Positions 1 through 42,260 of a DNA stretch of 64,000 nt are shown in pieces. Position numbers and translations under genes: made by a program. The notes under the pieces are model-generated. The model saw only the letters and a list, made by a program, of their open reading frames with translations. It made no database searches and was not told where the DNA came from. This DNA comes from an uncultured SAR92 cluster bacterium. GTDB taxonomy: Bacteria; Pseudomonadota; Gammaproteobacteria; Pseudomonadales; Porticoccaceae. Numbering within the stretch: position 1 is the stretch's first letter; every line of letters begins with the position of its first letter. The stretch lies in assembly GCA_902596775.1 (NCBI GenBank), contig CACJVE010000006.1, positions 5,962-69,961 on the forward strand, given 5' to 3'.

Positions 1-819
1 CACGCCTACGATATCAACTCTGGTTGGTTTTGACAGCACATCCAGTTTTATGACTTTGCCTTTCACCAATTCTACGGCCATTGCAAGATCAGGGCAGTGG
101 CACAAGCAATCAGAATTAATGACAAGCTCTTTACCCATATGCAACGAATCAATGGATACCACTTTCAACTTCTTCTTGATTAAACCGGGACTCTCTTTAA
201 GGCGGGGATAATACGGCGTAATTGCTGGAGCCTTGCTATTAAACATCCAAGGGTAAGGCTGCAGGTCTCTGGATTTAAGTGGCCGATCTAGCTTTCCTAG
301 GGGATGATCGATGGCACAAAAAGTACTAAAATTGCTACGAGTCATTAATTGAGAGATTAATGATTGAGGTACTGCTCCGTTAGAAGGCATAGAAACAAAT
401 CCTATATCAACAATCCCATCCTCCAAGTCGCTGAAAATGTCCTCGTAGTGGGATTCACTAAACTCGAGAGAGACGGTCGGATAATTTTCGTTAACCTTGG
501 CAGTCAACTCTCCAATGAAGTCGCCCGAGCGTATGTCACCCATTCCAATTCGGATGATAGCATTGCTAGCCTTTAGCTCTGCCTGAGCGAGGCGTAAATA
601 CTCCAGTGTCCGCTTAGCATGAGGATAAAAGTCTTTGCCTTTGGCATTCAGGACAAGACCTCGCCCCCGTCGCACAAAAAGAGAGACGCCCAACTGATTC
701 TCTAATCGTTTAATACTGCTGCTTAGACCAGGTTGTGAGATATGTTGGTCATCTGCCGCAGCATGAGCTGTTCCCGTTTCCACTAGAGCTACAAAGTGTC
801 TTAGTTGTCTGATATCCAT
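1..819 (-). CDS. LysR-family transcriptional regulator (C-terminal end runs off the window start)
   Basis: Not in the ORF track because there is no stop in the window. Manual minus-strand translation from the ATG at 817-819 gives MDIRQLRHFVALVETGTAHAAADDQHISQPGLSSSIKRLENQLGVSLFVRRGRG..., the canonical LysR winged-HTH N-terminus. The frame stays open for 273 codons to position 1. Confidence 0.8.
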   Translation of the reverse strand, partial: MDIRQLRHFVALVETGTAHAAADDQHISQPGLSSSIKRLENQLGVSLFVRRGRGLVLNAKGKDFYPHAKRTLEYLRLAQAELKASNAIIRIGMGDIRSGDFIGELTAKVNENYPTVSLEFSESHYEDIFSDLEDGIVDIGFVSMPSNGAVPQSLISQLMTRSNFSTFCAIDHPLGKLDRPLKSRDLQPYPWMFNSKAPAITPYYPRLKESPGLIKKKLKVVSIDSLHMGKELVINSDCLCHCPDLAMAVELVKGKVIKLDVLSKPTRVDIVGV

Positions 820-3518: not shown

Positions 3519-4184
3519 TTATGTAATCCAACCTCCCGCAAGAGGTAAAATTTGACCGACCATATGATTAGATTTTTCGTTGGCAAGGTAGGCAGCTAAC
3601 TCAGCAGTTTCTTCAGACGATCCAATCTTTGTTGTAGGGACATTTCGATTAAGGTGATTGATGAACTTTTCATCTTTTAAAAGATCGTCAGGATAGTAGG
3701 TATCATTGTGAATATAATTCTGAGCAATAGCATTAACCTGAATATTAGAACGAGCCAACTCAAGGCCAACAGCTTTTATAAAACTATTTTGGGCACCTCT
3801 TGCCGCACAATAAGCACTATTATTGGGGATACCCTTCAAAGGAGCAGCACTCGTAATTGCAATAATTTTACCTGACGCCCTTTCTAGCATTTGCGGAATA
3901 GTGGCTCGAACTGTATACATCAACGGGTGCACCAACTGGTCAAATAATGTCGTCCAGTCATCACTCTTGAGCTGCTCCAATGCCCCTGTCACTGGTGGAT
4001 GAGCAAAATTAGCAACCAAAACATCAATATGACCCGCGGCATCGACTGCTTCTACAACTTGATTCTCAGTGATCATTGGCGAGCGCCCTGCAGTTACGTC
4101 AAACTCAAGGTTTTGAAACTTCTTTTGAATAGCTGGACCCATGTAGCGATCAGCACAAGTAATAAGAACCCGACGTTTTGCCAT
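3519..4184 (-). CDS. Halohydrin dehalogenase-like protein (SDR-derived, non-NAD-binding)
   Basis: 221 aa with an SDR fold, but the Gly-rich TGxxxGxG dinucleotide motif is replaced by T-x4-Y-x-G (TCADRYMG, residues 9-16). The catalytic motif is S-x12-Y-x3-R (S-AAPLKGIPNNSA-Y-CAA-R) instead of the SDR YxxxK. By eye it aligns with Agrobacterium HheC around SGxIIxITSA...Y..AR and IxVxAIxPNY. The HheC sequence was recalled from memory. Confidence 0.65.
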   Translation of the reverse strand: MAKRRVLITCADRYMGPAIQKKFQNLEFDVTAGRSPMITENQVVEAVDAAGHIDVLVANFAHPPVTGALEQLKSDDWTTLFDQLVHPLMYTVRATIPQMLERASGKIIAITSAAPLKGIPNNSAYCAARGAQNSFIKAVGLELARSNIQVNAIAQNYIHNDTYYPDDLLKDEKFINHLNRNVPTTKIGSSEETAELAAYLANEKSNHMVGQILPLAGGWIT

Positions 4185-4220
4185 TTAACTATGTACCTTT
4201 TTATTTATCGATCGCAAAAC

Positions 4221-5060
4221 TTACTTATACAAACCGTCTGCCATCTGTTCCAAACCTCGAAATATCATTGTCGGATCTTTGCGCTTTAGTTCAACCATCT
4301 TTGCAGAGTCACAATCACCAATAACGAACTCATCTGCCTTGCAGGCCAGCTGCGGTAAAATATCCTTAGCTGCCTCTTCTGCAGTCATACCCTCAGTCAT
4401 AACGCCCTCCTCAGCACCAATTACCGACCCGTCTCCGGTCATAGCATTGGCAACTGCTCCTGTTTTAACAAGGCCTGGAATGATCGTGCTAACTTTAATA
4501 CCGTGATAAGCCACCTCCGCACGAAGCGCGTCAAGAAACCCGATTAATCCGAATTTGGTAGCGCAGTAAGCCGTCCTCAAAGGAACCCCAACTTTGCCAG
4601 CAACACTTGACGTTCCTACAATATGACCTGATTTTTGATTGATCATAATGGGCAATACCTGTTTAGTCAGCGCTATTGGGCCAATAAGATTTACCTCCAA
4701 AGCCGTACGATAAACGTCTATCTTTATGTCAGTGCAGAAATCACGAACACCCACCCCAGCATTATTGATGAGTAAGTCGATTTTGGAATATTTTTCCATA
4801 ACCTTATTAACTGCTCCTGGCATAGCATCCAAGTCCACCACGTCCAAAGGCAACACGAGCATACTCCCATGATCAGCTCCTGCTTCAAAGCATCGATCCC
4901 TGACACACTCAAGTTTTTTTTGATTACGCGCAGACAGCACCAACTTTGAACCAGCCCTTGCAAATGCCACCGCCATCTCTTCTCCGATACCACCTGAAGC
5001 GCCTGTTATCCATACTACTTTCTCAGCAAATGCTTGTTGATTACTTATTTGTTCATCCAT
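4221..5060 (-). CDS. Classical short-chain dehydrogenase/reductase (SDR) oxidoreductase
   Basis: 279 aa with a TGASGGIG Rossmann motif, NNAG, and the catalytic S...YCATK (YxxxK). Confidence 0.85.
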   Translation of the reverse strand: MDEQISNQQAFAEKVVWITGASGGIGEEMAVAFARAGSKLVLSARNQKKLECVRDRCFEAGADHGSMLVLPLDVVDLDAMPGAVNKVMEKYSKIDLLINNAGVGVRDFCTDIKIDVYRTALEVNLIGPIALTKQVLPIMINQKSGHIVGTSSVAGKVGVPLRTAYCATKFGLIGFLDALRAEVAYHGIKVSTIIPGLVKTGAVANAMTGDGSVIGAEEGVMTEGMTAEEAAKDILPQLACKADEFVIGDCDSAKMVELKRKDPTMIFRGLEQMADGLYK

Positions 5061-5120
5061 AGGGTAAATCCTTATTCATTGTTAACATCAAAACTCTTAT
5101 TTTACATTACTCACTAGATT

Positions 5121-6167
5121 CTATGTTGTTTTAAAGAAATCAATCGCCACTCTCGCTAACTCCTCTCCCGCATCATCCTGAGGGTAGTGCCCTGAATCTG
5201 CAATAGTGCAATGATTCTGACCGCGAGCGCCCGGAATACTTTCCTGCATTCTTGCAATCATCGGACTCTCATTTTTATAAACCTTGAACTCAAGAAACGT
5301 TGCACAGGGACCTCTTGTGGGCAGAAGTGAAGCACTAAATGCGGTCAGGAAAGGTTTTTCGAACTTCTCAAGTTCTTTCCATGCACGCCGATTATCCGGT
5401 ATTGCAGGGTTATCTGGTATCATTGGAACTAACGTAGGGAACTCTCTCGCTCCCTGCTTGTAGGATTCGTCAGGAAAAGGAGCTGCATAAGCCCTGTATT
5501 CCTCATCAGAGCATTCATTCAGCCAAAAACGCATAACCGCTCCAGGATCAAAATCCTCATAAGCATCACAGTGCTTGACCCAATAAAAGAAGCCCGGTCG
5601 ACCATCTTTAGCGCTCAGAGCCTGTTTGGTGACCTCCTCAATAGGTAGGGCTGGCGTCTGATCTAAAAGTCTGCGTAACTCAGGTGTCTTTTCCTCAGGG
5701 ATACCAGTTCCATCTCCCAGACCTGTGTTAGTCACTACAATGCGCGCGAATCGTTCTGGCATATCCGCAGCATTTCGCAACGCAATTGGTCCACCCCAAT
5801 CCTGGGCTATCAGATTGATATTTCTAAGATCCAGTCCTTCAATAAAGTTCCGTAACCATGCGACATGTCGAGAAAACGTATAGTCTGACCGCTTCGTCGG
5901 CTTATCCGATCGACCGAAACCAACAATGTCTGGAACAATAACTCTGAAGCCAGCCTCAGCAAGCGGCATAATCATTTTCCTAAAAGAGTAGCTCCAATTT
6001 GGTTGACCATGCATACAGAGTAAAGGCTCGCCATCAGGGGCCCCCTCATCGATATAGTGCATTCTAATTGTTCCACCATCCTCGTCATCAATATTGATAT
6101 AGTGGGGTTCGAACGGAAAATCAACGAGATCTCTAAATCTCTCGTCTGGAGTTCTAAGTACTTCCAT
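5121..6167 (-). CDS. Haloalkane dehalogenase, HLD-I / DhlA-like alpha/beta hydrolase
   Basis: 348 aa. The N-terminal two thirds align by eye with Xanthobacter DhlA. Shared motifs are RTPDERF..FPF.P.Y, HGQPNWSYSFRKM, GFGRSDKP, DYTF, LDLRNI.L..QDWGG (nucleophile elbow plus halide-binding Trp), a cap Trp in GFFYW, AAPFPD.SY, and His in ADSGHY. Confidence 0.8.
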   Translation of the reverse strand: MEVLRTPDERFRDLVDFPFEPHYINIDDEDGGTIRMHYIDEGAPDGEPLLCMHGQPNWSYSFRKMIMPLAEAGFRVIVPDIVGFGRSDKPTKRSDYTFSRHVAWLRNFIEGLDLRNINLIAQDWGGPIALRNAADMPERFARIVVTNTGLGDGTGIPEEKTPELRRLLDQTPALPIEEVTKQALSAKDGRPGFFYWVKHCDAYEDFDPGAVMRFWLNECSDEEYRAYAAPFPDESYKQGAREFPTLVPMIPDNPAIPDNRRAWKELEKFEKPFLTAFSASLLPTRGPCATFLEFKVYKNESPMIARMQESIPGARGQNHCTIADSGHYPQDDAGEELARVAIDFFKTT

Positions 6168-6219
6168 AGATAACTCGCTTTATTTGTACACTGCTAATCA
6201 GCAAGTATAGAACAATACC

Positions 6220-6263
6220 AATCTATTGAAGTCTATTAACAGATAGATGTAGATCAATAGATT
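6220..6263. promoter_or_regulatory. Nested imperfect palindrome (candidate operator) in the divergent spacer between the dehalogenase operon and the DUF3604 gene
   Basis: AATCTATTGAAGTCTATTAACAGATAGATGTAGATCAATAGATT. The outer 10-bp arms AATCTATTGA/TCAATAGATT are perfect inverted repeats. There is also an inner TCTAT..ATAGA pair. Confidence 0.3.
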
Positions 6264-6463
6264 CTTGTTATGCAGAGTTTGTTGTCCAAAATTTAGAAAT
6301 GCATCTCGAAAAATTTCTTACATGGTTTTTTAAATCCTTAAGTGATAACTTACCGTTATTAGACTTTTGAATGGTACTAAATAAATAATAGTCAGAGGGA
6401 TCCCAAGGAAGTGCACACAAAACATATTCTAGCCCATCAGGAAAAAGAACCGGATATAAAAAG

Positions 6464-8434
6464 ATGCCATCGAAAATGTTAGGAAAATCAACTTTATCCA
6501 AACGCAGAGCTTCAATCTATTTTGCACTTTTCACTTCCGCTACCATTACGGGGTGCAACGATAATGCCTCCTCCGATAAACCGCTAACCTCCAGTATGGC
6601 CTCAAAGGAAGTTACTCAAGTTATTCCTAAAAATCCTGATAAAAATGCCTATTTTGGTGACCTTCACGTTCACACAAGTTACTCATTCGACGCATTTCTC
6701 TTTGGAGTCAGGGCAGAACCAGATGACGCATACCGGTTTGCACAAGGCGCCAGTCTGGATCATGTTGGTGGTTTTGAGATGAAACTCAAGTCACCATTAG
6801 ATTTTTTTTCTGTAACAGATCATGGGGTTATGTTGGGGCACTACAGGGCCATGGCTGATCCAAACCATCCTTTATCAAATCATCCAGATGCTAGAATTGC
6901 CGCTCAGCCCAAGACACACAAAGAAAGGGAAATGGCATTTGCCTTAGCAAGAGATTGGGTAACACCTAGCCCTCGGCAGGGAGAAATAAATGACTCAACG
7001 ATTATTCAATCAAGCTGGGCAGAAATTGTTTCTAGCGCAAATCGACACAATAAGCCGGGAGAATTCACCGCCTTTATCGGGTATGAATACACCACCACCG
7101 GAGAGGTAGATCAAGCAAACCTGCATCGCAATGTAATCTTTGCTGGAGATAAAGCGCCACTATCGCCATTTTCTCGCCTTGATTCCGAAAATCCTGAAGA
7201 TTTATGGCGGTGGATGGATCAGCTTCGCGATCAAGGAATCGATTCTATTGCGATACCCCACAACTCAAATGGCTCCAATGGTCAAATGTTCAGCCTGACT
7301 GATTTTTCGGGAAAAGATTTTACTCAAGAGTATTCAGACATCCGGATGAGAAATGAGCCATTGGTTGAAATCAGCCAAATTAAGGGAACATCAGAGACTC
7401 ATCCTAAGCTATCGCCAGCGGACCAATGGGCTGATTTTGAGATTGAGCCTCGCATTGTAAGTTCGCCAAAAATCAGCAAAGTTAAAGGGAGCTACGTGCG
7501 AGATGCATATCTTGAAGGTCTAAAACTGTCCTCGGAAAAAGGGTTTGATCCCTTCAGATTCGGTGTTGTCGGCTCCAGTGATTCACACAACGGAAGCAGT
7601 GGCGGTACTGAGGACGATTATTTTCTTAAGGTTGGAATGCTTGATGCTAAAGCCGAGGATCGAGGCTCGCTGCCTAAGAAGGTTAATAGTGACGGCCAAC
7701 GATATTATTCCAACACCGGCTTGGTACACTTTGGAGCATCAGGGTTAGCTGGCGTTTGGGCTGAGAAAAATACCCGCGAAGCGATTTATGACAGCATGCG
7801 GCAGAAAGAGACTTTTGGCACCAGTGGTACGAGGATTAAATTACGATTTTTTGCAGGCTATAAATTACCAAAGCTGCGAAGAACTGACTTTATTAGTGCA
7901 GCATACAAAGTAGGTGTCCCGATGGGAGGCCAACTTAACCAAACACAGAACGAAATTCCAGAGTTTATTGTGTGGGCTACTCGTGATCCAAAAAGTGCCC
8001 CACTAGAGAGAGTGCAAATCATCAAAGGTTGGTTGAGTAGCACTGGCGTTCAGGAGCGAGTTTATGACGTGGCATGCGCTAACGGTATGAAGGTCAACCA
8101 AGCATCGCACCGATGCCCTGAGGTTGCCCCCTCTGTAAATCTCGAAGATTGTAGCTATGATGAACAAGTAGGCTCAGTAGAACTGAAAACTCGCTGGCAG
8201 GATCCTGACTTTGATTCTAGTGAGCGGGCATTCTACTATGTTCGTGTTTTAGAATCGCCAATCTGTAGATGGTCTACTTGGGATGCTATCCGAGCTGGAG
8301 TAGATCCAAGAACTGACAAAGATCAAACAATTAAACCATTGGAAGGCGTTACACCAGTAGGCGATAAGGATATCCTTATTCAAGAGCGCGCTTGGTCATC
8401 CCCAATATGGTATCAACCAAGTTATAGCGGCTGA
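6464..8434 (+). CDS. DUF3604-family secreted lipoprotein (PHP-like metal-binding N-terminal motif)
   Basis: 656 aa with a lipobox ATITGC after a hydrophobic leader. GDLHVHTSYSFDAF is the typical DUF3604/PHP-type His motif. The length and C-terminal WSSPIWY are typical of the family. An alternative start is Met at 6476. Confidence 0.7.
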   Translation: MPSKMLGKSTLSKRRASIYFALFTSATITGCNDNASSDKPLTSSMASKEVTQVIPKNPDKNAYFGDLHVHTSYSFDAFLFGVRAEPDDAYRFAQGASLDHVGGFEMKLKSPLDFFSVTDHGVMLGHYRAMADPNHPLSNHPDARIAAQPKTHKEREMAFALARDWVTPSPRQGEINDSTIIQSSWAEIVSSANRHNKPGEFTAFIGYEYTTTGEVDQANLHRNVIFAGDKAPLSPFSRLDSENPEDLWRWMDQLRDQGIDSIAIPHNSNGSNGQMFSLTDFSGKDFTQEYSDIRMRNEPLVEISQIKGTSETHPKLSPADQWADFEIEPRIVSSPKISKVKGSYVRDAYLEGLKLSSEKGFDPFRFGVVGSSDSHNGSSGGTEDDYFLKVGMLDAKAEDRGSLPKKVNSDGQRYYSNTGLVHFGASGLAGVWAEKNTREAIYDSMRQKETFGTSGTRIKLRFFAGYKLPKLRRTDFISAAYKVGVPMGGQLNQTQNEIPEFIVWATRDPKSAPLERVQIIKGWLSSTGVQERVYDVACANGMKVNQASHRCPEVAPSVNLEDCSYDEQVGSVELKTRWQDPDFDSSERAFYYVRVLESPICRWSTWDAIRAGVDPRTDKDQTIKPLEGVTPVGDKDILIQERAWSSPIWYQPSYSG

Positions 8435-8452: not shown

Positions 8453-9460
8453 CTATACCAGCCAGTGCATTCCCCTCTCAATGCACCACATCACTGAAAG
8501 CCCTCCTAATAAGTAAATAGATACCTGTCTTGAATACCTAATTAAATCCAAAGATGCGCTTTTTGCCATAAACCAAAGAATAAAAATGAGTGCCATAAAA
8601 CTCAACTGGCCTAGTTCTATTCCAATGTTAAAAGCGACAAGTGACAGAAAAATGCTCTCTTGAGGCAACCCAAATTCTAATAAAGCCCCAGCAAAACCTA
8701 AGCCATGAAGTAATCCAAACCCACCAGCTAATAGCCAAGGATGTCGCCAAAGATTTCCAACTTCACTATCTCTAGATAATTCAATAGCCAGGAAAAAAAT
8801 ACTCAAAGCGATGGCAAACTCAATCAGACCAGAGGACTCAGGTATGAAACCAAGAGTAATTATTGCAAGAGTAATACTGTGCCCAATGGTGAAAGCCGTA
8901 ATCGTAAAAACAAGTTGTTTTACTCCAACTATAAGAAGCATCAACCCAAACACGAACATCAAATGATCGATCCCAGATAAAATATGAGTGATTCCTAGTT
9001 TCGAATAGGCTGTAAGGACAGAAAAAACGTCCATTCGGTGGGGAACTACAAACTTTGATTTTCCAACCGACAATACCTCTTGATAGCGACGGCTATCGCG
9101 GAGATTAACAATCACTACCGCTGAGGTTTGAGTATCTCCTAAACCCTTAACACCGATGGTCTCACCTGATAGACTTTGGTTAGTGAAACTACAACTTAGC
9201 AAAAAGTTACTCACTGTCGTAGCCTCTGCTGCTTGTACTCTAGTTTGTCGATCAGTTTCGCATGAGCTTGGCCACTCAGGAGTCAGCATTGGCAATCCAT
9301 CTGGCCTGCTAGGAGTCTTCAAGACAGCACTATAGCGTGATCTTTCTTCAGTGACCTGTGGCAGTTCATTGATTTTTAAAAGCGAAGGTGCAAATTCGTG
9401 GCAGTATCCAAAGTCACTGGCGATCCAAAACAATGCAACTAAAAACCATGTTATTTTCAT
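8453..9460 (-). CDS. HupE/UreJ-family membrane protein with a ~150-aa N-terminal periplasmic extension
   Basis: 335 aa with a signal peptide. The C-terminal ~190 aa are polytopic and carry the HupE/UreJ-type motif HILSGIDHLMFVFGL plus repeated GxxxG/His TM segments. Confidence 0.65.
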   Translation of the reverse strand: MKITWFLVALFWIASDFGYCHEFAPSLLKINELPQVTEERSRYSAVLKTPSRPDGLPMLTPEWPSSCETDRQTRVQAAEATTVSNFLLSCSFTNQSLSGETIGVKGLGDTQTSAVVIVNLRDSRRYQEVLSVGKSKFVVPHRMDVFSVLTAYSKLGITHILSGIDHLMFVFGLMLLIVGVKQLVFTITAFTIGHSITLAIITLGFIPESSGLIEFAIALSIFFLAIELSRDSEVGNLWRHPWLLAGGFGLLHGLGFAGALLEFGLPQESIFLSLVAFNIGIELGQLSFMALIFILWFMAKSASLDLIRYSRQVSIYLLGGLSVMWCIERGMHWLV

Positions 9461-10380
9461 AAACGAATTTCGTATTGATTTCTCAATTCCTGAATAAACA
9501 TTTCAAGTGCTTGACCCTCACGTTCACTCATCGCTTCTGCCATAAGATCCTTGTAAGCTTCAGAAAAAGTTAAATCTCTACTCTGATTTATGCCGTCTAT
9601 CCAAACGAAATGATCTCCAAAAGATGAGGCAATTGGACCCACCCAAACATTTTCCCGAACACGTTTAGAGACTAACTGGGAAACAAACTTATTATCAAAC
9701 TGTCTCGACAGCTGCTCTGGACTGTGATCAATAAATTGATAGCCTGACAAGAAGGGATAACCTACTTCCCTAACATCATCAAAACTGACACCTGATAGAT
9801 CAAAGGAGGCCGCGAAGGCGCTCTTCTCACTAATGCGATCCTTAGGAAAGTAGATATGCCTAATCGAATATCGAGCTGGTGATTTAAAAGCGGATTCTTG
9901 ACGTCTAAACTCAGATAATAGCTCCTCATTTGTGGGAAGAGAGGGTGGATTTTGAGATAGGAACTGGCGCTCTAATTGCTGAACTAACCGCCTTCGTATC
10001 AGCTCATCAGTCTGATGCAACTGCATCGCCAAAGCCTGCTCGAAAATGGCATCATTAGAAGCTCCACTGTTCATTTCCAGGAATGACATAGTTCGGATTA
10101 ATCGATTGTAAACGAACTCATCACTAAGATGCAGTCCATCGGCAAGAGCTCGCCTAAAGAGTATCTCTCGATCTAGCTCAGTTGTAGCAAGAAATTTTTT
10201 TTGCTGTTGATTGGGAGGCCTGCCAGACTCAATTTCCCATTGATTTATCAATACAGCCATACGCTCCTGAGATACTGGACCAATAATCGGGAGTGGTGTT
10301 GGGTAAAATAATTGCTTTAAACAAAAAAGCATTACACCCAAAATCAGAAAGTGGGCCAAAGGCTTATCGTAGAAACTCAT
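9457..10380 (-). CDS. Membrane-anchored hypothetical protein (possibly a parvulin/PpiC-like fold)
   Basis: 307-aa ORF with one N-terminal TM helix. Its stop overlaps the downstream HupE-like start (ATGA overlap at 9457-9460), which suggests translational coupling. The functional call is from recollection of similar gene pairs only. Confidence 0.4.
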   Translation of the reverse strand: MSFYDKPLAHFLILGVMLFCLKQLFYPTPLPIIGPVSQERMAVLINQWEIESGRPPNQQQKKFLATTELDREILFRRALADGLHLSDEFVYNRLIRTMSFLEMNSGASNDAIFEQALAMQLHQTDELIRRRLVQQLERQFLSQNPPSLPTNEELLSEFRRQESAFKSPARYSIRHIYFPKDRISEKSAFAASFDLSGVSFDDVREVGYPFLSGYQFIDHSPEQLSRQFDNKFVSQLVSKRVRENVWVGPIASSFGDHFVWIDGINQSRDLTFSEAYKDLMAEAMSEREGQALEMFIQELRNQYEIRL

Positions 10381-10418
10381 TCTTTTGTGATCAAATTTAA
10401 AAAATTAGAGAAATCATA

Positions 10419-10889
10419 CTACTTATCAATATCCGCCACTGCCAGAAGGTTGTGTGATCTAAATGCTTCATACAACTTTAATGAGGGCGCCTTGACCTTT
10501 CTTGTCTGCAGATCAAAAAAAGCACCTTGACTAATGATTTTTGCCGATAGTTCACCCGCTTGATTATAAATTTCGAATATTCTTCGCCATTTCCGAAAAT
10601 TAATAGACTCAGGAAGCAAGACAACCGAAATGGTAATTTCCTCGTCCACAAACACTTCTCGAAAAAATTCAATGTTCGATGAAAAAACAATTGGTGCCGT
10701 TTGCTCTGCGGAAAAACAGTCATTCAAACCTAGTTCTCGGTGTAAATCCTGCAGAACATCGATAGCGATCTTGTAGTAACTTGATTCTGAAACATGCTGA
10801 TTGCAATCAATAAAATCTGGAGATACGATTCGCTTTTGAGTTATCAAATTTTTCTCACAAATATTTTTCGAGAAATTTTCTGAGATCAC
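10419..10889 (-). CDS. Hotdog-fold acyl-CoA thioesterase-like protein
   Basis: 156 aa. The N-terminal segment IVSPDFIDCNQHVSESSYYK resembles the 4HBT/YbgC motif (V..D.D..GHV.N..Y). It overlaps the upstream esterase stop by 35 nt. Confidence 0.45.
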   Translation of the reverse strand: MISENFSKNICEKNLITQKRIVSPDFIDCNQHVSESSYYKIAIDVLQDLHRELGLNDCFSAEQTAPIVFSSNIEFFREVFVDEEITISVVLLPESINFRKWRRIFEIYNQAGELSAKIISQGAFFDLQTRKVKAPSLKLYEAFRSHNLLAVADIDK

Positions 10890-11913
10890 CTAACGCGCCA
10901 TCATACTCTCGAGATCCTGGAACTCTCAGATAAGCGCCATGAGGCAGCCCTTCAAATATATTTAGGTCAGCTGTAACTCCTGCTTCTCGCAATTTTCTAT
11001 GCATCCGCACAGTATCGCTAAGTAAAGCATCTCGGGTTCCGGCTATTAGATATGTCGGCGGAAAATCCGTTACGTCTCCATAGAGAGGAGATATCAAAGG
11101 ATTCTTAGGGTCAAAAGCACCAGCATAAACTTTGAATGCGGCCTGTAAAAGGCCCTCCTTGGTGACCAATACATTATCTACATATTCATTTGTTATCCAG
11201 CTGTCGCCTGTAAATAGAAGGTCCACACTAGGTGTTCCCGCAAATAAAGCTCCCGGCAATTCAATATCCAAGCTCTTTAGTTTTAAAGTCGAGGAAAGCG
11301 CCAAGCCTCCTCCAGCTGAAGATCCACCCATTCCAATTCTGGAGGCTGGCAGTGTTTCATTAACCGCTTTATAGACAGTAATTATGTCATCTAAGGCTGC
11401 GGGAAAAGGTTGTGAAGTCGACAAAGTATAGTCGACAGATATAACGCCAATGCCTCCTGAGGACGCAATCATGGCGCCCTCTACAGCACTGAGGAGTCCT
11501 CCCATTTGAAAGTATGCACCTCCGTGAATGTGGACAAATAATCGACCATCCAGTTTCGAGTTCAGATTCAGAGGGTTTATGCGATAAACACCTACGCCGT
11601 TTATTTTATCTTGAGAGATCTGAACGTTAAAAGTAGTCTCAAGCATTTCCTCTGTTACTGGATTTTCCGCAGCAGTTTGGTCGGCCATCTTAATTAATTC
11701 ATCAAGAAAATTGTCGCCAAAAAGTTGCCCTCTTCTCTCAAATTGAGATGACCCTATTTCCCCTATCGCAAGTCGAGTCTCATCACTGAGACTTGATGCT
11801 GCCGTCAATTTTTTTTCTGGAACTATCCATAGATCTGGTACTGCCATATTTTCACCGACAAAAAAAAGACTAAATATAAAGACAAAAAACACATTTCTCA
11901 TAGTAACCCCCAA
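10855..11913 (-). CDS. Secreted alpha/beta-hydrolase esterase/lipase (HSL / family IV type)
   Basis: 352 aa with a signal peptide, the HGGAY oxyanion motif (HIHGGAYFQMGG), a GGSSAGGG nucleophile elbow (GxSxG), and C-terminal D...H (GTRDALL, LPHGAY). Confidence 0.85.
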   Translation of the reverse strand: MGVTMRNVFFVFIFSLFFVGENMAVPDLWIVPEKKLTAASSLSDETRLAIGEIGSSQFERRGQLFGDNFLDELIKMADQTAAENPVTEEMLETTFNVQISQDKINGVGVYRINPLNLNSKLDGRLFVHIHGGAYFQMGGLLSAVEGAMIASSGGIGVISVDYTLSTSQPFPAALDDIITVYKAVNETLPASRIGMGGSSAGGGLALSSTLKLKSLDIELPGALFAGTPSVDLLFTGDSWITNEYVDNVLVTKEGLLQAAFKVYAGAFDPKNPLISPLYGDVTDFPPTYLIAGTRDALLSDTVRMHRKLREAGVTADLNIFEGLPHGAYLRVPGSREYDGALGDLRKFLEKYL

Positions 11914-12147
11914 TCACTTAAAGTATGTCACTGAGTAATCTCTTAAATCATTTCAATACCTTATGTTTCAACAAGTTCCACTTATTAATAACTATTATCT
12001 ATTGACTAAGTTCAATCTATAAATAGACACACTTAAAATTTTACTTAATAGTGCCATAAGCTAAATGTTAGATATTAAGCGCGATCCCACATAAAGCACA
12101 GAGTGTAATAAAAAATCATTCAATCAATCACAGTTGAGAGGATAACA

Positions 12148-18778: not shown

Positions 18779-20137
18779 TTATGTTTTAGGTCTTTGCCAA
18801 TTTTCAATATTCTTTTGCTTAGATCTCCCAATTCCCAAACAATTATTGGGTACATCAGTAGTGATGGTAGATCCAGCTCCGACAAACGCTCCGTCTTTTA
18901 TGTGCACCGGTGCAACTAAAGTAGAATTTGATCCAATAAAAACGTTCGCTCCAATACTCGTTTTATGCTTACTTGTACCGTCATAATTGCAAGTAATCGT
19001 TCCCGCGCCAATATTCACATCTCTTTCTAAAATAGCATCACCAACATAAGCTAAATGATTTACTTTACTACCATCACCGATCATAGAGTTTTTTATTTCC
19101 ACAAAGTTCCCAACTTTTGCGTTAGGCATTACTTTTGTGTCTGGTCTCAATCTCGCATACGGACCAATAGTGGTGTTCTCATGTACGTGAGATTTTTCAA
19201 TTATTGAATTAGCCTTAATACGAGCACCGTCCGCAATTTTACTATCAATAATTAAACAGTTTGACTCGATATGGACCTCGCTACCGAGAACGTTCTCTCC
19301 TTCAAAAATACAGTTAATATCAATAAAACAGTCCGCCCCAGCAGAAAGTGTTCCTCTTTGATCAAAACGATTAGGATCTGCAATAGTAGTACCAGAATCC
19401 ATCAAGTTTTGAGCTTGTATAAGCTGATAACTTCTTTCCAAATTACTTAGCTGTTTTTTGTCATTCACACCCTGAACCTCGATTAATTGACTCGGCGAGA
19501 CAGTTTTAACGGCTAAACCACTGCTTCTCGCCAATTTTATAATATCGGTTAAATAATACTCTTTTTGTGCATTTTGGTTATTAATCTTTGGTAACAAAGA
19601 TTTAAGTTGAGTATCTGTAAGAGCAATAACCCCTGTATTCACCTCATTTATCCGTAACTGATCAGGAGACGCGTCCTTTTGCTCTACAATTTCCTGAACA
19701 CTATTATTGCGATCTCTCACAATTCGTCCATAGCCTTCAGGGCTATCAATATTAACCGTTAGTAGTCCGATTGTATCTGAAGAAACTTTGCTAATAAGTA
19801 CTTTGATCGTTTCAACTTCAATACAAGGCACGTCTCCATAGAGAATCACCACTTTTGAATTAGTTTTTAGTTTTGGAACAGCGACCGATACAGCATGTGC
19901 AGTTCCGAGCTGCTCTTTTTGTTTTACAAAGCTAATATTTTCAGAATGTAGATGTTTTTCAACCTGTTTAGCTTGATAGCCAGTTACAACAATTGGTTTT
20001 CGAGCACCAACGGATTGTGCAGTTTTCACCACGCGACTTAATAAAGAAATACCCGCTAGTTTTTGCAATACCTTGGAGCTAGCTGAGTACATTCGGCTAC
20101 CTTTACCTGCTGCAAGAATAACGACTTCAATATTCAT
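18779..20137 (-). CDS. glmU: Bifunctional UDP-N-acetylglucosamine pyrophosphorylase / GlcN-1-P acetyltransferase
   Basis: It contains the ILAAGKGSRM motif and C-terminal left-handed beta-helix hexapeptide repeats. The start is placed at MNIEVVILAAG (20137). The ORF is open to 20221. Confidence 0.95.
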   Translation of the reverse strand: MNIEVVILAAGKGSRMYSASSKVLQKLAGISLLSRVVKTAQSVGARKPIVVTGYQAKQVEKHLHSENISFVKQKEQLGTAHAVSVAVPKLKTNSKVVILYGDVPCIEVETIKVLISKVSSDTIGLLTVNIDSPEGYGRIVRDRNNSVQEIVEQKDASPDQLRINEVNTGVIALTDTQLKSLLPKINNQNAQKEYYLTDIIKLARSSGLAVKTVSPSQLIEVQGVNDKKQLSNLERSYQLIQAQNLMDSGTTIADPNRFDQRGTLSAGADCFIDINCIFEGENVLGSEVHIESNCLIIDSKIADGARIKANSIIEKSHVHENTTIGPYARLRPDTKVMPNAKVGNFVEIKNSMIGDGSKVNHLAYVGDAILERDVNIGAGTITCNYDGTSKHKTSIGANVFIGSNSTLVAPVHIKDGAFVGAGSTITTDVPNNCLGIGRSKQKNIENWQRPKT

Positions 20138-20241
20138 ATTTTCAAGGTCTTTACTATTTTGACGACGCAGATTAACTGAATTAAAAACAAGATCCAAGCG
20201 CCATAAAATTAAGAATAGCACTGCCTCAATGAAAAAATATA

Positions 20242-20667
20242 TTACTTACCTAATTTTTTCTTTAGCGCGCGCACCGTCCGAAGCTGAGCAGTAGCTTCGG
20301 CAAGCATCGATGCAGCTTTAGAGTATTCAATATCACCGCTATTATTGCCTACATCATTTTCAGCATCTTTAACAGCTTGCGCAGCCGCAGCTTCGTCAAT
20401 GTTATCTGCCCGAATTGCGGTGTCAGCTAAAACCGCGATTCCGCTCGGTTGCACCTCTACGTAACCGCCAGATAAAAAATATACTTCTTCAGTATCGTCA
20501 GTTTTGATTATTCTTACCGGCCCTGGTTTCAAATCACTCAATAAAGCCGCATGCCCGGGCATTATACCCATTTCTCCGGTCGAGCCAGTGATAACCAGCA
20601 TTTTTACAGACCCCTGAAAAATGCTTTCACTTGCACTTACTATTTCACAATGAACACTCGCGGCCAT
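20242..20667 (-). CDS. atpC: F1 ATP synthase epsilon subunit
   Basis: 141 aa. It is the last gene of the atp operon and has typical epsilon N-terminal beta-sandwich sequence (GEMGIMPGHAALLS). Confidence 0.95.
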   Translation of the reverse strand: MAASVHCEIVSASESIFQGSVKMLVITGSTGEMGIMPGHAALLSDLKPGPVRIIKTDDTEEVYFLSGGYVEVQPSGIAVLADTAIRADNIDEAAAAQAVKDAENDVGNNSGDIEYSKAASMLAEATAQLRTVRALKKKLGK

Positions 20668-20685
20668 CGACTTATGATCCTTTGT

Positions 20686-22095
<1,410 letters not shown>

Positions 22096-22117
22096 TCACA
22101 TAACCTTAAACATTCTT

Positions 22118-22978
22118 TTAAACGGCAGATGCACCGCCAACTATTTCCGACAATTCTTGTGTAATTGCAGCTTGCCTTGCTTTGTTGTAAAGAAGCTGTA
22201 ACTCGTCAATAAGATCACCTGCATTATCGGTGGCATTTTTCATTGCCAACATCCGAGCAGCTTGCTCACATGCTTTATTTTCGACGACCCCTTGATAGAC
22301 TTGAGACTCAATATATCGAATTAGAAGACCATCAATTAATTCCTTTGCATCAGGCTCATAAATATAATCCCAATGATAAGATAGCTCGCTATTATCACTG
22401 GGCTCTAATGGAAGTATTTGTTCCACTCTAGGGGATTGCGTCATCGTATTAACGAACTCGTTAGTTACAAGCATCAGTTGATCTATTTCACTATTGTCAT
22501 AAGCATCAAGCATTACTTTTATGCCACCAATCAGATCATCTATTTGCGGCTCTTCACCAACATCCTTGATAGTAGCAACGACATTGCCTCCAACTGAGGA
22601 AAAAAAACTCACGCCCTTATTGCCAATGACACATAAATTTATATTTATGTTTTTATCTGAAAACTCTTTTATTTCTCGAAGAGCACATTTAAAAAGATTA
22701 ATATTTAGACCGCCACATAATCCTCTGTCAGTGGATATAATAATAAATCCTACTCTTTTAACATCTCTCTTAATTAAATAACGGTGCTTGTACTCTGATG
22801 ATGATTTTGCAATATGCCCAACAACTTTTCTGATGTGTCTTGAATAAGGCTTACCAAGTAACATTTTATCTTGGGCCTTTCGCATTTTACTCGCGGCAAC
22901 CATTTCCATTGCACTCGTTATCTTTTGAGTGCTGCTGATACTCGCAATTTTTGTTTTTACTTCTTTGCCAATAGCCAT
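22118..22978 (-). CDS. atpG: F1 ATP synthase gamma subunit
   Basis: 286 aa with an N-terminal [29 protein letters not shown] and C-terminal [12 protein letters not shown]. Confidence 0.97.
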
Positions 22979-22993
22979 TGTCTAGACGGGCCT

Positions 22994-24538
22994 TTACCAA
23001 GTTCCAGTGGAGGCAAATTTTTCAAGTGCCTTAGTAAATGTTGACTCTATCTCATCGTTATAATCACCATTTTCATTTATCTTTGCCATGAGTTCTTTAT
23101 GGTCAGTGTTCATGTATGACAGTAACGCACTTTCAAAATCATTTATCTTTTCTACCAAAACATCTTTCAAAAAGCCTTTGTCTGCCGCAAATACCATAAC
23201 ACCCATTTCCGCAACGCTAAGCGGTGAATATTGCTTCTGCTTCATTAATTCCGTAACTCGTTCACCATGATCAAGTTGAGCTTTAGTTGCCTCATCTAAA
23301 TCTGAAGCAAACTGAGAGAAAGCAGCCAATTCTCTGTATTGTGCCAACGCTGTCCTAATTCCACCCGACAATTTCTTCATGATTTTTGTTTGTGCCGCTC
23401 CGCCAACTCTTGACACAGAAATACCGGCATTCATTGCAGGTCGAACTCCAGCGTTAAACATGTCAGCTTCTAAAAAGATTTGACCATCTGTTATGGATAT
23501 CACGTTAGTTGGAACAAAAGCAGATACATCACCCGCTTGAGTCTCAATCACTGGAAGCGCAGTCAGAGAACCAGTCTTCCCTTTCACTTTGCCTTTCGTG
23601 AACTTTTCTACATAGTCTGCATTAACTCGTGCCCCTCTCTCTAGTAGTCTCGAGTGCAAATAAAAAACGTCCCCCGGATACGCTTCTCGACCAGGCGGTC
23701 TTCGCAAAAGTAATGATATTTGCCGATAAGCTACGGCTTGTTTTGTAAGATCATCATAAATAATCAATGCATCTTGCCCACGGTCACGGTAATACTCCCC
23801 CATGGTGCATCCTGCAAATGGCGCTAAAAATTGCATTGCTGCTGCATCTGCGGCCGATGCAGAAACAACTATGGTATGGCCCATAGCTCCGTGCTCTTCT
23901 AACTTTCTAACTACTGCCGCTACAGAAGCTGCTTTTTGGCCAACAGCTACGTAGACACATTTAATCCCTGAATCTTTTTGATTAATAATTGCATCAACAG
24001 CAATTGCTGTTTTTCCAATTTGTCTGTCTCCAATTATTAGCTCCCTTTGACCCCTCCCAATTGGCACCATTGCATCAACCGCTTTAAGGCCAATCTGAAC
24101 TGGCTGATCAACGGACTGTCTGTCAATAACACCAGGCGCTACTTTTTCTAAGGCATCAGTCAACTTCGCATTGATTGGTCCTTTACCATCGATAGGGTTT
24201 CCTAATGCATCTATTACCCTACCCTCTAACTCAGGCCCAACAGGAACTTCTAAAACTTTACCTGTACACCGAACTCGTCCTCCTTCAGCGAGAGCTTGAT
24301 AGTCACCTAAAACAACGGCACCAACGGAATCACGCTCTAAATTTAGAGCCATTCCAAACATGCCTCCATCAAATTCAATCATCTCTCCATACATAACGTC
24401 TTCAAGACCATGAATTCTGATAATACCGTCAGAAACGGAAACTATTGTTCCCTCATTTCTTGATTCAGCAGAGACGTCAAGATTATCAATTCGGTCCTTA
24501 ATTATTTCACTAATTTCAGACGGGTTTAATTGTTGCAT
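22994..24538 (-). CDS. atpA: F1 ATP synthase alpha subunit
   Basis: 514 aa with Walker [10 protein letters not shown]. Confidence 0.98.
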
Positions 24539-24555
24539 TTCAGAAACCTCAATAC

Positions 24556-25092
24556 TCAGGTGTTTAACGAATCGGCGAGTTTAGTCAATTTACCTCTTAT
24601 GGAGTTATCAATAACCATATCTCCAGCTTGAATAACTGCGCCGCCTAATAAGTCTTTATCGATCAAAACTTGTACGCTTATTTTTCTTTTTAAATTCTCC
24701 GCCAAGGCGGAAGAAAGTTTTTTCAATTGAACATCGTTTGGCTTTTCTGTAACTGTCAGGGCTATCTCTATTACTGCCTCTCGATTTGCTTTTAAAGCTT
24801 CAAATTGCCGAGTTATAAAGGGTGCTAAAGATAATCTTCTATTTTCCACTAAAAGCTTTATAAAATTTTCGAATGCTGTTGGAATGTCTTCTTGATATGT
24901 TCCAAGTATCGTATCAACTAACTCATTAGAACCTAAGCTAGGCTGGCCAAGAATTTCTTTAGCTAATGGGTTTTGAATTATCTCGGATAAATACTTTAAA
25001 TATTTCAACCAATCTTCAATTACACTTTTCTCGATAGAGTATTCAAATGCTGCTTTCGAATATGGTCTTGCTAAAGTAGATAATTCATTCAT
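24556..25092 (-). CDS. atpH: F1 ATP synthase delta subunit
   Basis: 178 aa. Called from operon position and the [11 protein letters not shown]-terminus. Confidence 0.93.
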
Positions 25093-25105
25093 GAGATTTC
25101 AAAAT

Positions 25106-25576
25106 TTAAAGTTCTTGAGCCAATTTATCTAACAAATCTTTATTTGTTTCACTGTCAACTGATTTCTCGAGGATTTTTTCAGCGCCCGCAATAGCTAATT
25201 CAGATACAGATTTTCTAAGTTTTTCCTTTGCTCTGTTAATTTCAAGATCTATCTCAGACTGAGCCGCAATTTTAATTCTTTCACCCTCATCAGACGCTTT
25301 AATCTTTGCCTCTTCGATAATTTGGCTCGCGCGTTTATTTGCTTGATCAATAATGACAGATGCTTCACTTTTCGCATCATCTATCTTCCTATCTATTTCG
25401 AGTTTGGTTTCCGCTAATTCTCTCGTTGCTTTCTCAGCAAAATTTAATCCATCTTCGATTTTCTTTTGACGCTCCTCTAGAGAAGTTAAAATCACCGGCC
25501 AAACGAACTTCATACAAAACCAAACAAAGATAGCGAATGTCACCATTTGACCGAATAACGTCAAATTAATATTCAT
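25106..25576 (-). CDS. atpF: Fo ATP synthase subunit b
   Basis: 156 aa with a single N-terminal TM helix followed by a long charged helix. Operon position supports the call. Confidence 0.93.
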
Positions 25577-25609
25577 TGTTGAGCCTCAAATTTATCTATT
25601 TGGGTTTGA

Positions 25610-25843
<234 letters not shown>

Positions 25844-25873
25844 TTAAGACTCCTTTATTTAAGTTAAGTTAAG

Positions 25874-26947
<1,074 letters not shown>

Positions 26948-29156: not shown

Positions 29157-29790
29157 GGATATGTCTGTTTTTATTTAACATAGGAACTATTACTTTGTGT
29201 TTGTTTGTGACCTTATATTGTTTAGGCAGTTGACTCAACTCAGATTCTGATATGTGACCTTTCATTGCCAGAAAACTCCCGTTATCTCTTAAAAGATGCT
29301 GAGTAAAATTAACCATTTTCTCAACTGAGCTAAATGCTCGGCTTATAATATGATCGAACTTATCTTCTGTTTGATAATTTTCTACCCGAGCTTTAATAAT
29401 CCTGACATTTTTTACAGACAAATGTGTCTTTATTTGATTCAAAAATATTGTTTTTTTTTGAGAACTGTCTAACAAGACAAAAGCTTTGTTAGGGAAAATC
29501 AATGCCAACGGTAACCCTGGAAAGCCGGGACCGGTTCCAACATCAATTATTTTTTCGCCACTTAAATACTTGTTAACAGATAAACTATCTAAAAGGTGAT
29601 TAGTAATTATCTCTTGGCTATCAGAAATGGCGGTTAGATTATGAATTTTGTTCCATTTCCTTAAATAAAAAACAAATTTAGAAAATTTTTGAATCTGAAT
29701 ACCAGATAAATTTATTCCTAGTTCCGCAGAACCTGTTGTAAACAAATCTAATATTTTTTTATTTAATTGATAGCTCCGATCAAGCTGCAT
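29134..29790 (-). CDS. rsmG: 16S rRNA (guanine527-N7)-methyltransferase
   Basis: 218 aa with the SAM motif [14 protein letters not shown]. Its position after mnmG supports the call. Confidence 0.93.
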
Positions 29791-31648
29791 GTTTTTTTAA
29801 TTGAATTAATAACAAAGAGATCGCTGCCGCCGTAATACCAGGAATTCTTATCGCTGCTGCTAATGACTCAGGTCTTGCATCCTCTAGTTTTTGCATAACC
29901 TCGTTAGATAGACCTTTTATATTTTGATATTCAAAATCAGAGGGAATTTTTAGTTTCTCATTTTTCTGTAACTTGATAATTTCTTGTTCTTGGCGCTTAA
30001 CATAACCTTCATACTTTATGTCGGTCTCTATCTGGTTCAAGTATTGGGTCTCTCCCATTTCCTGTTTAAATAATTGATTAATTTTTTGGTAATTAACCTC
30101 GGGTCTTTTAAGAAGATCATACAAGGAATATTCTCTGCTAATACTATGTGGCAAACTTTCGGATAAAGTTTCAACATTTTTTGTTTCTGGGTTTATCCAA
30201 GTATCTTTCAGTTTCTGCTTCTCTCTTTCAATACTCTCTTTCTTTTCACAGAAACTTCGCCACCTTGATTCCTCTACTATTCCCAAGGACTTTCCTATCT
30301 CCGTTAATCGAATATCCGCGTTATCTTCTCGCAAAAGTAGCCTGTATTCAGCTCTGCTGGTGAACATTCTATATGGCTCTTTTGTTCCAAAATTTATTAA
30401 ATCATCAACCAAAACACCAATATATGCCTGATCGCGTCGTGGATACCAAGGATCTTTTTCTAAAACATTTAAACTCGCATTCAACCCTGCTAATAATCCT
30501 TGTGCTGCTGCCTCCTCATAACCCGTGGTCCCATTGATTTGTCCAGCAAAATAGAGGTTTTTTATTATTTTCGATTGTAAACTGTGGTGCAAGTCCTGTG
30601 GGTTGAAAAAGTCATATTCAATCGCATATCCTGGTCGAGTTATTTGAGCCTTCTCGAAACCCTCAATTGTTCTCAAGAAGTTCAACTGTGTTTCAAACGG
30701 CATGCTAGTACTAATACCATTTGGATATAATTCGTTGGTATTCAACCCCTCCGGTTCAATAAAAATTTGATGTTTATCTCTATCTGGAAATCTGACAATT
30801 TTATCTTCTATTGAAGGGCAATATCGCGGACCAACCCCTTCGATTGTTCCAGTAAATAAAGGCGATTTATCTAAGGAGTCATGAATAATAGCGTGAGTTT
30901 GTTTATTAGTATGTGCGATCCAACAGCAAACTTGTTGTGGGTGCTGTTCAACCTCCCCGAGATAAGACATTACAGGCCTTTCTTTATCACCCCATTGTTC
31001 AGTTAAAAGGTTAAAGTTAACAGAACGCTTATCAACACGTGGTGGTGTTCCAGTTTTTAAGCGCTCAATTCTAAAAGGAAGCGACTTAAAATACCGAGCT
31101 AAAAGTATTGAAGATGAATCTCCTGCTCTTCCACCTGAAAAATTTTCTAAACCAACATGCATTTTTCCCGCTAGAAATGTACCAGCGGTCACTATCACTG
31201 TTTTTGAATGGAAAGATAAACCCTTTGATGCCTCAACACCGATAACCTTCTCTTTCTCGATTATTAAATTGTCAACTGATGCTTGAAAAATAGACAAGTT
31301 TTCTTGATTCTCTAAAAAGCTTCGAATAGCTGCCCTATAAAGTGATCTATCTGCTTGTGCTCTAGTTGCCCTCACTGCAGGTCCTTTTCGTCGATTTAAA
31401 ACCCTGAAGTGAATCCCGCTTAAATCAGCTGCTTTTGCCATAACTCCATCTAATGCATCGATTTCCTTTACAAGATGGGTTTTTCCAATACCACCTATTG
31501 ATGGGTTACACGACATTTGACCTAATGTTTCAATATTATGCGTTAATAAGAGTGTTTTGCAGCCCATACGAGCTGCTGCAAGAGACGCCTCTGTTCCTGC
31601 ATGTCCGCCACCAACAACAATAACGTCAAATTTATCTGAATAAATCAT
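29780..31648 (-). CDS. mnmG: tRNA uridine 5-carboxymethylaminomethyl modification enzyme
   Basis: 622 aa with the FAD motif [13 protein letters not shown] and conserved [17 protein letters not shown]. Confidence 0.97.
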
Positions 31649-32010
31649 TATTTAAATCATATTTATAAAATATACATTATATATATATTTAGTTTATTTT
31701 TATTGTTATTAGTAAATAATTATTTGTTAATAACTTTAATTATAGTCATAAAATCAGATACTTAATTGAAATTTTAAGGTGAATGAACTGTATATATTAA
31801 GTAAAACTTTCAGTTAGTAAGTGTGTATCACTCAACAATAACTTTTATCACTTTGGGCAGTAATCTTAATTCTTTTACTTTCTGTGGATAATTTTTAAAA
31901 GAATACAGGTTTTTTTACAACTTATTCATCCTTACTAATTTAATGATAATCATTGTATTGTTCAAAGGATTTGATTAAACTCGCGACCAAACTTTATGGG
32001 GTATACATCC
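31649..32010. other. Candidate oriC / DNA-unwinding region (mnmG-rpmH divergent spacer)
   Basis: 362-nt non-coding spacer at the point where gene orientation switches from minus to plus. Positions 31649-31800 are roughly 90 percent A+T by eye. It contains one perfect DnaA box. Confidence 0.45.
31883..31891 (-). promoter_or_regulatory. Perfect DnaA box (TTATCCACA on the minus strand)
   Basis: The plus strand reads TGTGGATAA. Confidence 0.6.
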
Positions 32011-32145
32011 ATGAAAAGAACATTCCAGCCAAGTAACTTAAAGCGAAAGCGAACTCACGGCTTTAGAGCTCGTATGGCAACTGCTGGGGGAAGAGCAGTT
32101 TTAAATCGAAGAAGAGCGAAGGGAAGAAAAATACTTTCCGCTTAA
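32011..32145 (+). CDS. rpmH: 50S ribosomal protein L34
   Basis: Below the ORF-track cutoff. Manual translation gives [44 protein letters not shown] (44 aa), which is near-universal L34 sequence. Confidence 0.97.
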
Positions 32146-32150
32146 CTCTT

Positions 32151-38745: not shown

Positions 38746-42260
<3,515 letters not shown>

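Follow-up and report, generated by a model that had tools for sequence, protein, structure and literature searches.

The stretch of DNA analysed here, hereafter the window, comprises 64,000 nt of an uncultured SAR92 cluster bacterium (GenBank assembly GCA_902596775.1, contig CACJVE010000006.1), and the subject of this study is a group of three genes on its minus strand. They code for a 348-aa alpha/beta-hydrolase related to haloalkane dehalogenases (HLDs), a 279-aa short-chain dehydrogenase/reductase (SDR) and a 221-aa putative halohydrin dehalogenase (HHDH), and are followed by the genes of a TonB-dependent outer-membrane receptor and a LysR-family regulator (Table 1). A preliminary description, made from the sequence alone, had reported three minus-strand open reading frames with gaps of 60 and 36 nt, and this layout is exact; all of the motifs that it named were recovered by regular-expression search, and the LysR and receptor genes that it placed near the operon are both real by Pfam. 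Its claim of an operon is plausible, because the two spacers are short and a consensus scan found no terminator-like hairpin in either of them. Both spacers are conserved in the related loci L003 and L087, the 60-nt spacer with the same length and the 36-nt spacer with equal length and near-identical sequence. From the common strand, the short spacers, the lack of a terminator-like site and the conserved adjacency, the three genes are predicted to form probably one transcription unit.

Upstream of the first gene, the consensus scan found a promoter-like site, TGGACA-16-AAGAAT at 6288..6261, which is the sole such site sensibly placed for the unit. Two 10-nt arms at 6220-6229 (AATCTATTGA) and 6254-6263 (TCAATAGATT), 24 nt apart, form a perfect inverted repeat that may serve as an operator, for which the conserved LysR protein would be the obvious binding partner. 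About 130 nt 5' of the first gene are nearly invariant between the window and L003 despite a synonymous divergence (dS) of 0.47 in the coding sequence, and this conservation beyond the synonymous rate counts in favour of the functional unit that we propose below.

We know of no assayed member of the clade to which the 221-aa protein belongs. The protein carries both of the fingerprints by which Schallmey and co-workers defined HHDHs, T-x4-[F/Y]-x-G and S-x12-Y-x3-R (PMC4989007). The nucleophile-pocket motif is present as TCADRYMG at residues 9-16 (T9-x4-Y14-x-G16), and the triad motif as S112-x12-Y125-x3-R129, with Arg instead of the Lys of SDRs; the regular-expression search found no TGxxxGxG dinucleotide motif, and NNAG is also missing. 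Y14, G16, S112, Y125 and R129 are invariant in 29 homologues (66-99% identity), and position 9 is either T or S. The best matches in the PDB are HheD8-M3 (8xxb, 183 bits; PMC11782660), HheD2 (7b73, 173 bits; PMC9629495) and HheB (144 bits), whereas the best genuine SDR reaches 88 bits, about half of the scores of the verified HHDHs, and the NCBIfam SDR models all remain far under their own cutoffs. Like HheD8, HheD2 and HheB (4zd6/5b12), the protein is about 220 aa long with an SDR fold, in which T-x4-[F/Y]-x-G replaces the Rossmann motif and the triad is Ser-Tyr-Arg, and it aligns with these enzymes end to end without gaps. By every sequence criterion it would therefore be an HHDH rather than an NAD-type SDR, as had been claimed from its motifs, and we infer the corresponding activity.

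The clade of the 221-aa protein differs from the known HheD and HheB enzymes, to which its identity is only 43% (HheD8), 40% (HheD2) and 39% (HheB), HheD8 and HheD2 sharing 61% with each other. In a neighbour-joining (NJ) tree rooted on HheB, the whole clade falls beside HheD2 and HheD8 as their sister; the references in this tree are these three only, and it was read beside the PDB bit-score ranking. More than 1000 relatives were found in public data, chiefly in marine Gammaproteobacteria, where the clade is widespread. On these comparisons, it stands next to types D and B as a new branch, distinct and very conserved (62-99% identity).

The product of the middle gene has the classical SDR motifs TGASGGIG (residues 19-26), NNAG (99-102) and S151...Y165-x3-K169, which together with its Pfam match bear out its description as a genuine NAD(P)-dependent SDR. 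Its score against the NCBIfam model PRK06181, 213.8 bits, is slightly below the cutoff of 215, and no informative close characterised relative of this protein was found. The NCBIfam model NF004514, a 578-aa hydrolase-SDR fusion, matches both the N-terminus of the 348-aa hydrolase and the SDR, which is a weak hint that such hydrolase-SDR pairs act together.

The 348-aa hydrolase passes the NCBIfam haloalkane dehalogenase model NF002043 with 374.2 bits (cutoff 265), and its best solved relatives by sequence are DmrA, DpcA, DccA, DhlA and DppA. The motifs HGQP, QDWGG and GHY were found at residues 53, 122 and 326. An AlphaFold model built with 118 homologues (pLDDT 96.5) has an alpha/beta-hydrolase core and a helical cap, and the top 17 Foldseek matches of this model were all HLD-I enzymes, with E values of 5e-36 to 4e-24, the best being DpcA, DmrA, DccA, DppA and DhlA; TM-scores normalised by the target were 0.85-0.95. 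The nucleophile D123, W124, N147, the cap Trp W196, which falls in the part of the alignment that holds the cap Trp of DmrA, and the base H327 are invariant in 118/118 homologues. Thus with the HLD-I enzymes DmrA (4mj3), DpcA (6f9o), DccA (5esr), DppA (2xt0) and DhlA (2had) the protein shares the fold, the QDWGG elbow, the His after beta8 and the Trp-Trp halide pair. It differs from them in HGQP for HGEP and in about 35 extra cap residues, approximately residues 153-192, which are common to all 118 homologues, a long-cap set of 330-350 aa. HMMER places DmrA residues 160-180 twice on the query, at 160-180 and at 192-212, so that the long cap may contain an ancient internal duplication.

The protein retains four of the five residues of the catalytic pentad. 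The catalytic Asp after beta7 is missing and L281 stands in its place (FSASLLPTRG, as against FSDSDPVTRG in relatives), and there is no acid at the HLD-II position either, which holds the invariant N147. Among the 118 homologues the catalytic-acid column is D in 96, E in 6, N in 11 and P, L or S in five representatives of the window clade. Beyond the L281 region this clade has an insertion of 18-19 aa (LLPTRGPCATFLEFKVYKN; PCATFLEFKVYKNESPMIA) with a strictly conserved YKNE motif that includes E300. The insertion was found only in the window, L001-L003, L081, L082, L085, L086 and P0121-P0124 and is missing in the other 113 of the 118 homologues; insertion and YKNE are present in all eight contigs of the window clade (75-99% identity). 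The ratio of nonsynonymous to synonymous substitution rates (dN/dS) of the hydrolase gene is 0.04-0.07, and it is low within the insertion too, so the protein is functional and a pseudogene is ruled out. A frameshift or sequencing error behind the missing Asp was also rejected, since the other two frames give stops or unrelated sequence and eight independent contigs share this sequence, which is under purifying selection.

The sister orthologues P0125 and P0127 (57-58% identity), which lie in an equivalent cluster, retain the Asp and are without the insertion. In the model of P0127 a helix follows directly after beta7, whereas in the window hydrolase the insertion adds an extra helix (286-291) and then a loop. 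Comparison of the DSSP strings of the two showed new single-residue bridges at 187, 190, 280 and 298 in the window protein, the partners of which are not assignable. E300 of YKNE is a candidate replacement for the lost Asp, and we put the chance that E300 or N299 reaches H327 at roughly even. The preliminary description had called the protein a DhlA-like HLD-I enzyme; the fold, the QDWGG elbow, the cap Trp, the His and the NF002043 match agree with this, but the missing Asp after beta7 and the extra cap residues had been overlooked. Because this defining residue was looked for and not found, the protein is best described as HLD-I-derived and not as a bona fide HLD. In a second long-cap subgroup (P0209, P0215 and relatives; 11 of the 118, with the motif FNNPNS) the position of the catalytic acid is taken by Asn; with the window clade, this makes at least two occasions on which the acid of this subfamily has been lost or altered.

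The locus is native and origin-proximal. The host is a Porticoccaceae/SAR92 (HTCC2207-like) genome, with L001 99% identical to it, and GC content is uniform across the window. The window spans the chromosomal origin region, with mnmG, yidC, dnaA, dnaN and gyrB and the F1F0 atp operon next to them (29780-42260 and about 20000-26000), and about 30 kb separate dnaA from the dehalogenase cluster. Three SAR92 genomes share the arrangement HLD-SDR-HHDH, and so does one metagenome contig. The native status proposed at the outset is therefore confirmed by the uniform GC, the chromosomal origin context and the synteny in related genomes, which also rule out a horizontal island.

Two surveys define how far the arrangement extends, one centred on the HHDH (80 genome loci with an orthologue of 62-99% identity, each with 10-kb flanks) and one on the HLD-like gene (80 metagenome loci and four contigs). 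The order HLD-SDR-HHDH-receptor-LysR of the window is the same in L001, occurs in L003 with a second receptor, and in L087 runs HLD-SDR-HHDH-receptor2-LysR. L086 (HLD 80% identical) has carboxylesterase-Abhydrolase_3-HLD-SDR-receptor-LysR. The locus L088 (HLD 57% identical) begins with thioesterase, a peptidyl-prolyl isomerase-like gene, HupE, a flavin mononucleotide (FMN) dehydrogenase and DUF3604, then, on the opposite strand, has a glutathione S-transferase (GST) gene and a pair of MaoC genes, and continues as HLD-SDR-DUF3604-receptor-HHDH(63%)-LysR. Three partial loci show HLD-SDR-DUF3604-receptor (L084) and SDR-receptor-HHDH-LysR (L015, L075). The SDR gene comes directly after the HLD-like gene in nine of ten informative orthologous loci, and HLD-SDR, receptor and LysR are kept on one strand in the window and L001-L003, L087, L086 and L088. 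Receptor orthologues (42-98% identity) are retained in every cluster variant, and a LysR orthologue (53-97% identity) closes the cluster in L001, L003, L087, L086, L015, L088 and L075. More distant HLD-I genes, with at most 53% identity, have none of these neighbours.

HLD-SDR with the receptor and the LysR gene is thus a conserved but reshuffled Porticoccaceae cluster, in which the linkage of receptor and regulator that had been suggested for the window holds across relatives at only 44-63% identity. Since the cluster persists through reshuffling, its linkage appears to be under selection. The HHDH is a frequent yet dispensable member of this cluster with a variable position. The cluster-linked HHDHs lie on adjacent basal branches of the NJ tree, a grouping that fits vertical descent as part of the cluster.

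Building on the observed gene order, family identities, purifying selection and synteny, we propose that the HLD-I-derived hydrolase, the SDR and the HheD/HheB-type HHDH are a native three-gene core that degrades or detoxifies a halogenated organic compound after its import, in a cluster with the receptor, the LysR regulator and a DUF3604 protein, a proposal to which we give an even chance of being right; that they would work as a coupled dehalogenation pathway is plausible. The halogenated compound would enter through the TonB-dependent receptor, would perhaps be acted on by the DUF3604 lipoprotein while in the periplasm, and would be dehalogenated in the cytoplasm by the putatively co-transcribed three-gene unit. 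In the presumed order of reactions, D123 of the hydrolase would attack the substrate and displace the halide via an alkyl-enzyme ester, with W124 and W196 holding the halide and H327, possibly together with E300, acting as the base that activates water. The HHDH would then convert a vicinal halohydrin into an epoxide, with Y125 as base together with S112 and R129, and the SDR might interconvert an adjoining hydroxyl and carbonyl, either by oxidising the alcohol product or by making the halohydrin from an alpha-haloketone. The receptor and the esterases and thioesterase nearby suggest a substrate larger than a volatile C2-C3 haloalkane.

Several observations weigh against this proposal. No epoxide hydrolase or other evident epoxide-consuming enzyme was found in the window or nearby, in line with the preliminary description, which had seen no epoxide hydrolase in the window. 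Without the canonical Asp, turnover by the hydrolase as a dehalogenase would not be assured, and a TonB-dependent receptor fits a larger substrate than the small volatile haloalkanes. In L081 (75% identical) the HLD-like gene stands alone. L086 has no HHDH gene, and in L088, L015 and L075 the gene comes after that of the receptor, in L088 at about 6 kb from the HLD-like gene. HLD-SDR-HHDH occurs in only the three closest SAR92 genomes of the 80 HHDH loci and HLD-HHDH adjacency in one of the 80 HLD metagenome loci, so that adjacency as a general rule was rejected; in 75 of the 80 genomes with an HHDH orthologue there is no HLD gene within 10 kb. Instead, 50 of the 80 HHDH orthologues follow a gene for a DSBA-like thioredoxin-fold protein (among L004-L080, e.g. 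L004 5391-10583), with coenzyme A (CoA)-transferase III, MaoC hydratase and acyl-CoA dehydrogenase genes beside them on the other strand, a context from which one might suspect that this HHDH branch has another physiological function, tied to CoA. The coupling of HLD and HHDH put forward earlier thus stands in part: the two genes are adjacent in the SAR92 lineage and share the cluster elsewhere, but direct adjacency is confined to one narrow lineage.

These distributions feed an alternative that we regard as a real if lesser possibility, namely that the working pair is the HLD-like hydrolase and the SDR (halide or ester to alcohol to carbonyl), and that the HHDH is a recent neighbour acting on halohydrins of its own, brought in by a lineage-specific rearrangement, with no two-step dehalogenation module. 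The constant HLD-SDR pair (nine of ten loci), the adjacency of the HHDH only in a lineage at least 84% identical, its absence or displacement in the reshuffled clusters, its usual place behind the DSBA-like gene and the fusion model NF004514, which covers both hydrolase and SDR, all fit such a pair. However, where a Porticoccaceae HHDH is present it always lies inside the LysR-bounded, same-strand cluster, the cluster-linked HHDHs are basal branches separate from the DSBA-context ones, and the 36-nt spacer is conserved. It is rather unlikely that the hydrolase has switched from haloalkane dehalogenation to another hydrolysis, for instance opening the epoxide made by the HHDH or cleaving esters. 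Such a switch would fit L, P or S at the Asp column throughout the window clade, the lack of another epoxide hydrolase in the window and the esterase genes (Abhydrolase_3, COesterase) close by in several cluster variants, and the classical partner of an HHDH is indeed an alpha/beta-hydrolase of the epoxide hydrolase kind, as on Novosphingobium pSA2 and in the operons of PMC4989007; but the halide-stabilising W124 and W196 are both invariant, the best sequence and structure matches are all HLDs, the score clears the cutoff of the NCBIfam HLD model, the sister orthologues L084 and L088 keep the Asp in the same cluster, and a conserved Glu (E300) is on hand in the insertion. By far the least probable reading takes the 221-aa protein for a plain NAD(P)-dependent SDR in a cluster unconnected with halogens. 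Public annotations do name it 'SDR family oxidoreductase' or '2-keto-3-deoxy-L-fuconate dehydrogenase', and Pfam and NCBIfam offer only SDR models for it, whereas the missing Gly-rich motif and NNAG, the Arg in place of Lys, the NCBIfam matches far under cutoff and the roughly twofold higher scores of verified HHDHs speak for an HHDH. A native halogen-related core of the three genes remains our preferred reading. Going further, one may speculate that the cluster is a dedicated SAR92/Porticoccaceae system, LysR-controlled and TonB-dependent, for the import and dehalogenation of algal halogenated natural products (e.g. vicinally halogenated or bromohydrin lipids, terpenoids), with an HLD-I descendant whose acid has moved to a new loop (E300 of YKNE) working in series with the HheD-like HHDH and the SDR; this we consider unlikely as a whole, and if it holds, both HLDs and HHDHs would have a physiological function in open-ocean waters.

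A natural route of comparable logic is the degradation of 1,2-dibromoethane by Mycobacterium GP1, the enzymes of which are a haloalkane dehalogenase and then a haloalcohol dehalogenase; to our knowledge the two genes have not been reported as one operon, and no linkage to an SDR, TonB-dependent receptor or LysR gene has been described for them. In this route 2-bromoethanol is converted to ethylene oxide (PMC6802363, citing Poelarends 1999). The GP1 route resembles the window in the sequential action of HLD and HHDH on a vicinal dihalide in a natural setting, and the preliminary description, which held that coupling an HLD to an HHDH had needed engineering, had overlooked it (PMC6802363). GP1 is an enrichment isolate on a pollutant, whereas the host of the window is a relative of abundant marine oligotrophs. 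The engineered 1,2,3-trichloropropane pathway DhaA + HheC + EchA, with hydrolytic dehalogenation followed by halohydrin ring closure, shares the two-step logic of the window (PMC5539299), but is synthetic, is drawn from three source organisms, includes an epoxide hydrolase and uses an HLD-II enzyme with a C-type HHDH.

HHDH genes in an operon with an epoxide hydrolase gene number only two, and other roles are not excluded for HHDHs (PMC4989007). On plasmid pSA2 of Novosphingobium resinovorum (L165, 4880-8663), we found SDR, enolase-like, epoxide hydrolase family and HHDH-like genes in a row; the HHDH-like protein is 53% identical to HheB, the plasmid is a conjugative megaplasmid, and aldehyde dehydrogenase and pyrroloquinoline quinone (PQQ)-dehydrogenase genes lie upstream. 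The pSA2 and classical operons are like the window in that an HHDH adjoins an alpha/beta-hydrolase with an SDR near, but their hydrolase belongs to the epoxide hydrolase family, whereas that of the window is HLD-I-derived with the Trp-Trp pair and no epoxide hydrolase is present. A native HLD-HHDH operon, its embedding with a receptor and LysR gene in an abundant marine clade, and an HLD without the acid were not found in the literature searched, and key primary papers lie outside that literature, so that prior description is possible; on the genomic context of HHDHs nothing was found in it. Few natural substrates and physiological roles are known for HLDs and HHDHs. In the cluster, enzymes of both types are linked with an importer and a regulator, and the marine clade that carries it is abundant and can be cultured, which gives a handle for finding the inducer and the substrate. 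With the hydrolase clade, nature has run an experiment in which an HLD has its catalytic acid moved or removed, and the 221-aa clade, an unsampled and very conserved branch beside HheD and HheB, could serve biocatalysis.

Table 1. Features of the putative dehalogenation locus and its surroundings, in window coordinates
Feature	Position	Strand	Basis or remark
LysR-family regulator	1..819	-	273 aa visible, C-terminus beyond window end; Pfam HTH_1 4e-19, LysR_substrate 3e-16
TonB-dependent outer-membrane receptor, 770 aa	1014..3326	-	Pfam Plug and TonB_dep_Rec_b-barrel
Predicted halohydrin dehalogenase, HheD/HheB branch, 221 aa	3519..4184	-	motifs, PDB bit scores, NJ tree
SDR/HHDH spacer, 36 nt	4185..4220	-	AAAGG precedes start codon
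Classical NAD(P)-dependent SDR, 279 aa	4221..5060	-	Pfam adh_short 2e-52
HLD-like/SDR spacer, 60 nt	5061..5120	-	AAGGA precedes start codon
HLD-I-derived alpha/beta-hydrolase, 348 aa, long cap, non-canonical catalytic acid	5121..6167	-	NCBIfam NF002043, AlphaFold, Foldseek
Clade-specific insertion and E300, codons 281-300	5268..5327	-	alignment of 118 homologues
Conserved region upstream of putative operon	6168..6300	-	promoter-like site, perfect 10-nt inverted repeat
DUF3604 protein, 656 aa, divergent, lipoprotein-type N-terminus	6464..8434	+	Pfam DUF3604 6e-214
HupE_UreJ_2 membrane protein and Rotamase_2-like protein	8453..10380	-	Pfam

Beyond the core lie several further genes. For the GST, MaoC, FMN-dehydrogenase, thiamine pyrophosphate (TPP)-enzyme, carboxylesterase, DSBA and CoA-transferase genes of the sister clusters, no counterparts were found in the window. 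An Abhydrolase_3 (HSL-type esterase) gene is located at 10855-11913 on the minus strand, 4.7 kb away from that of the HLD-like hydrolase; a gene of this kind is directly upstream of the HLD-like gene in L082, L083 and L086, in the last of these together with a carboxylesterase gene, and the esterase may belong to the same pathway. For the divergent DUF3604 protein, which has an HVH (PHP-like) motif, no solved relative was found by sequence, and a literature search came back nearly empty, with a single paper that mentions the name. DUF3604 copies (45-49% identity) flank HLD-SDR in the sister clusters L084 and L088, in the latter as two copies at 3945-5957 and 9929-11935. The HupE_UreJ_2 and Rotamase_2-like genes of the window overlap by 4 nt, and their orthologues (52% and 39% identity, respectively) are found at 557-2655 in the L088 cluster, where they travel with DUF3604.

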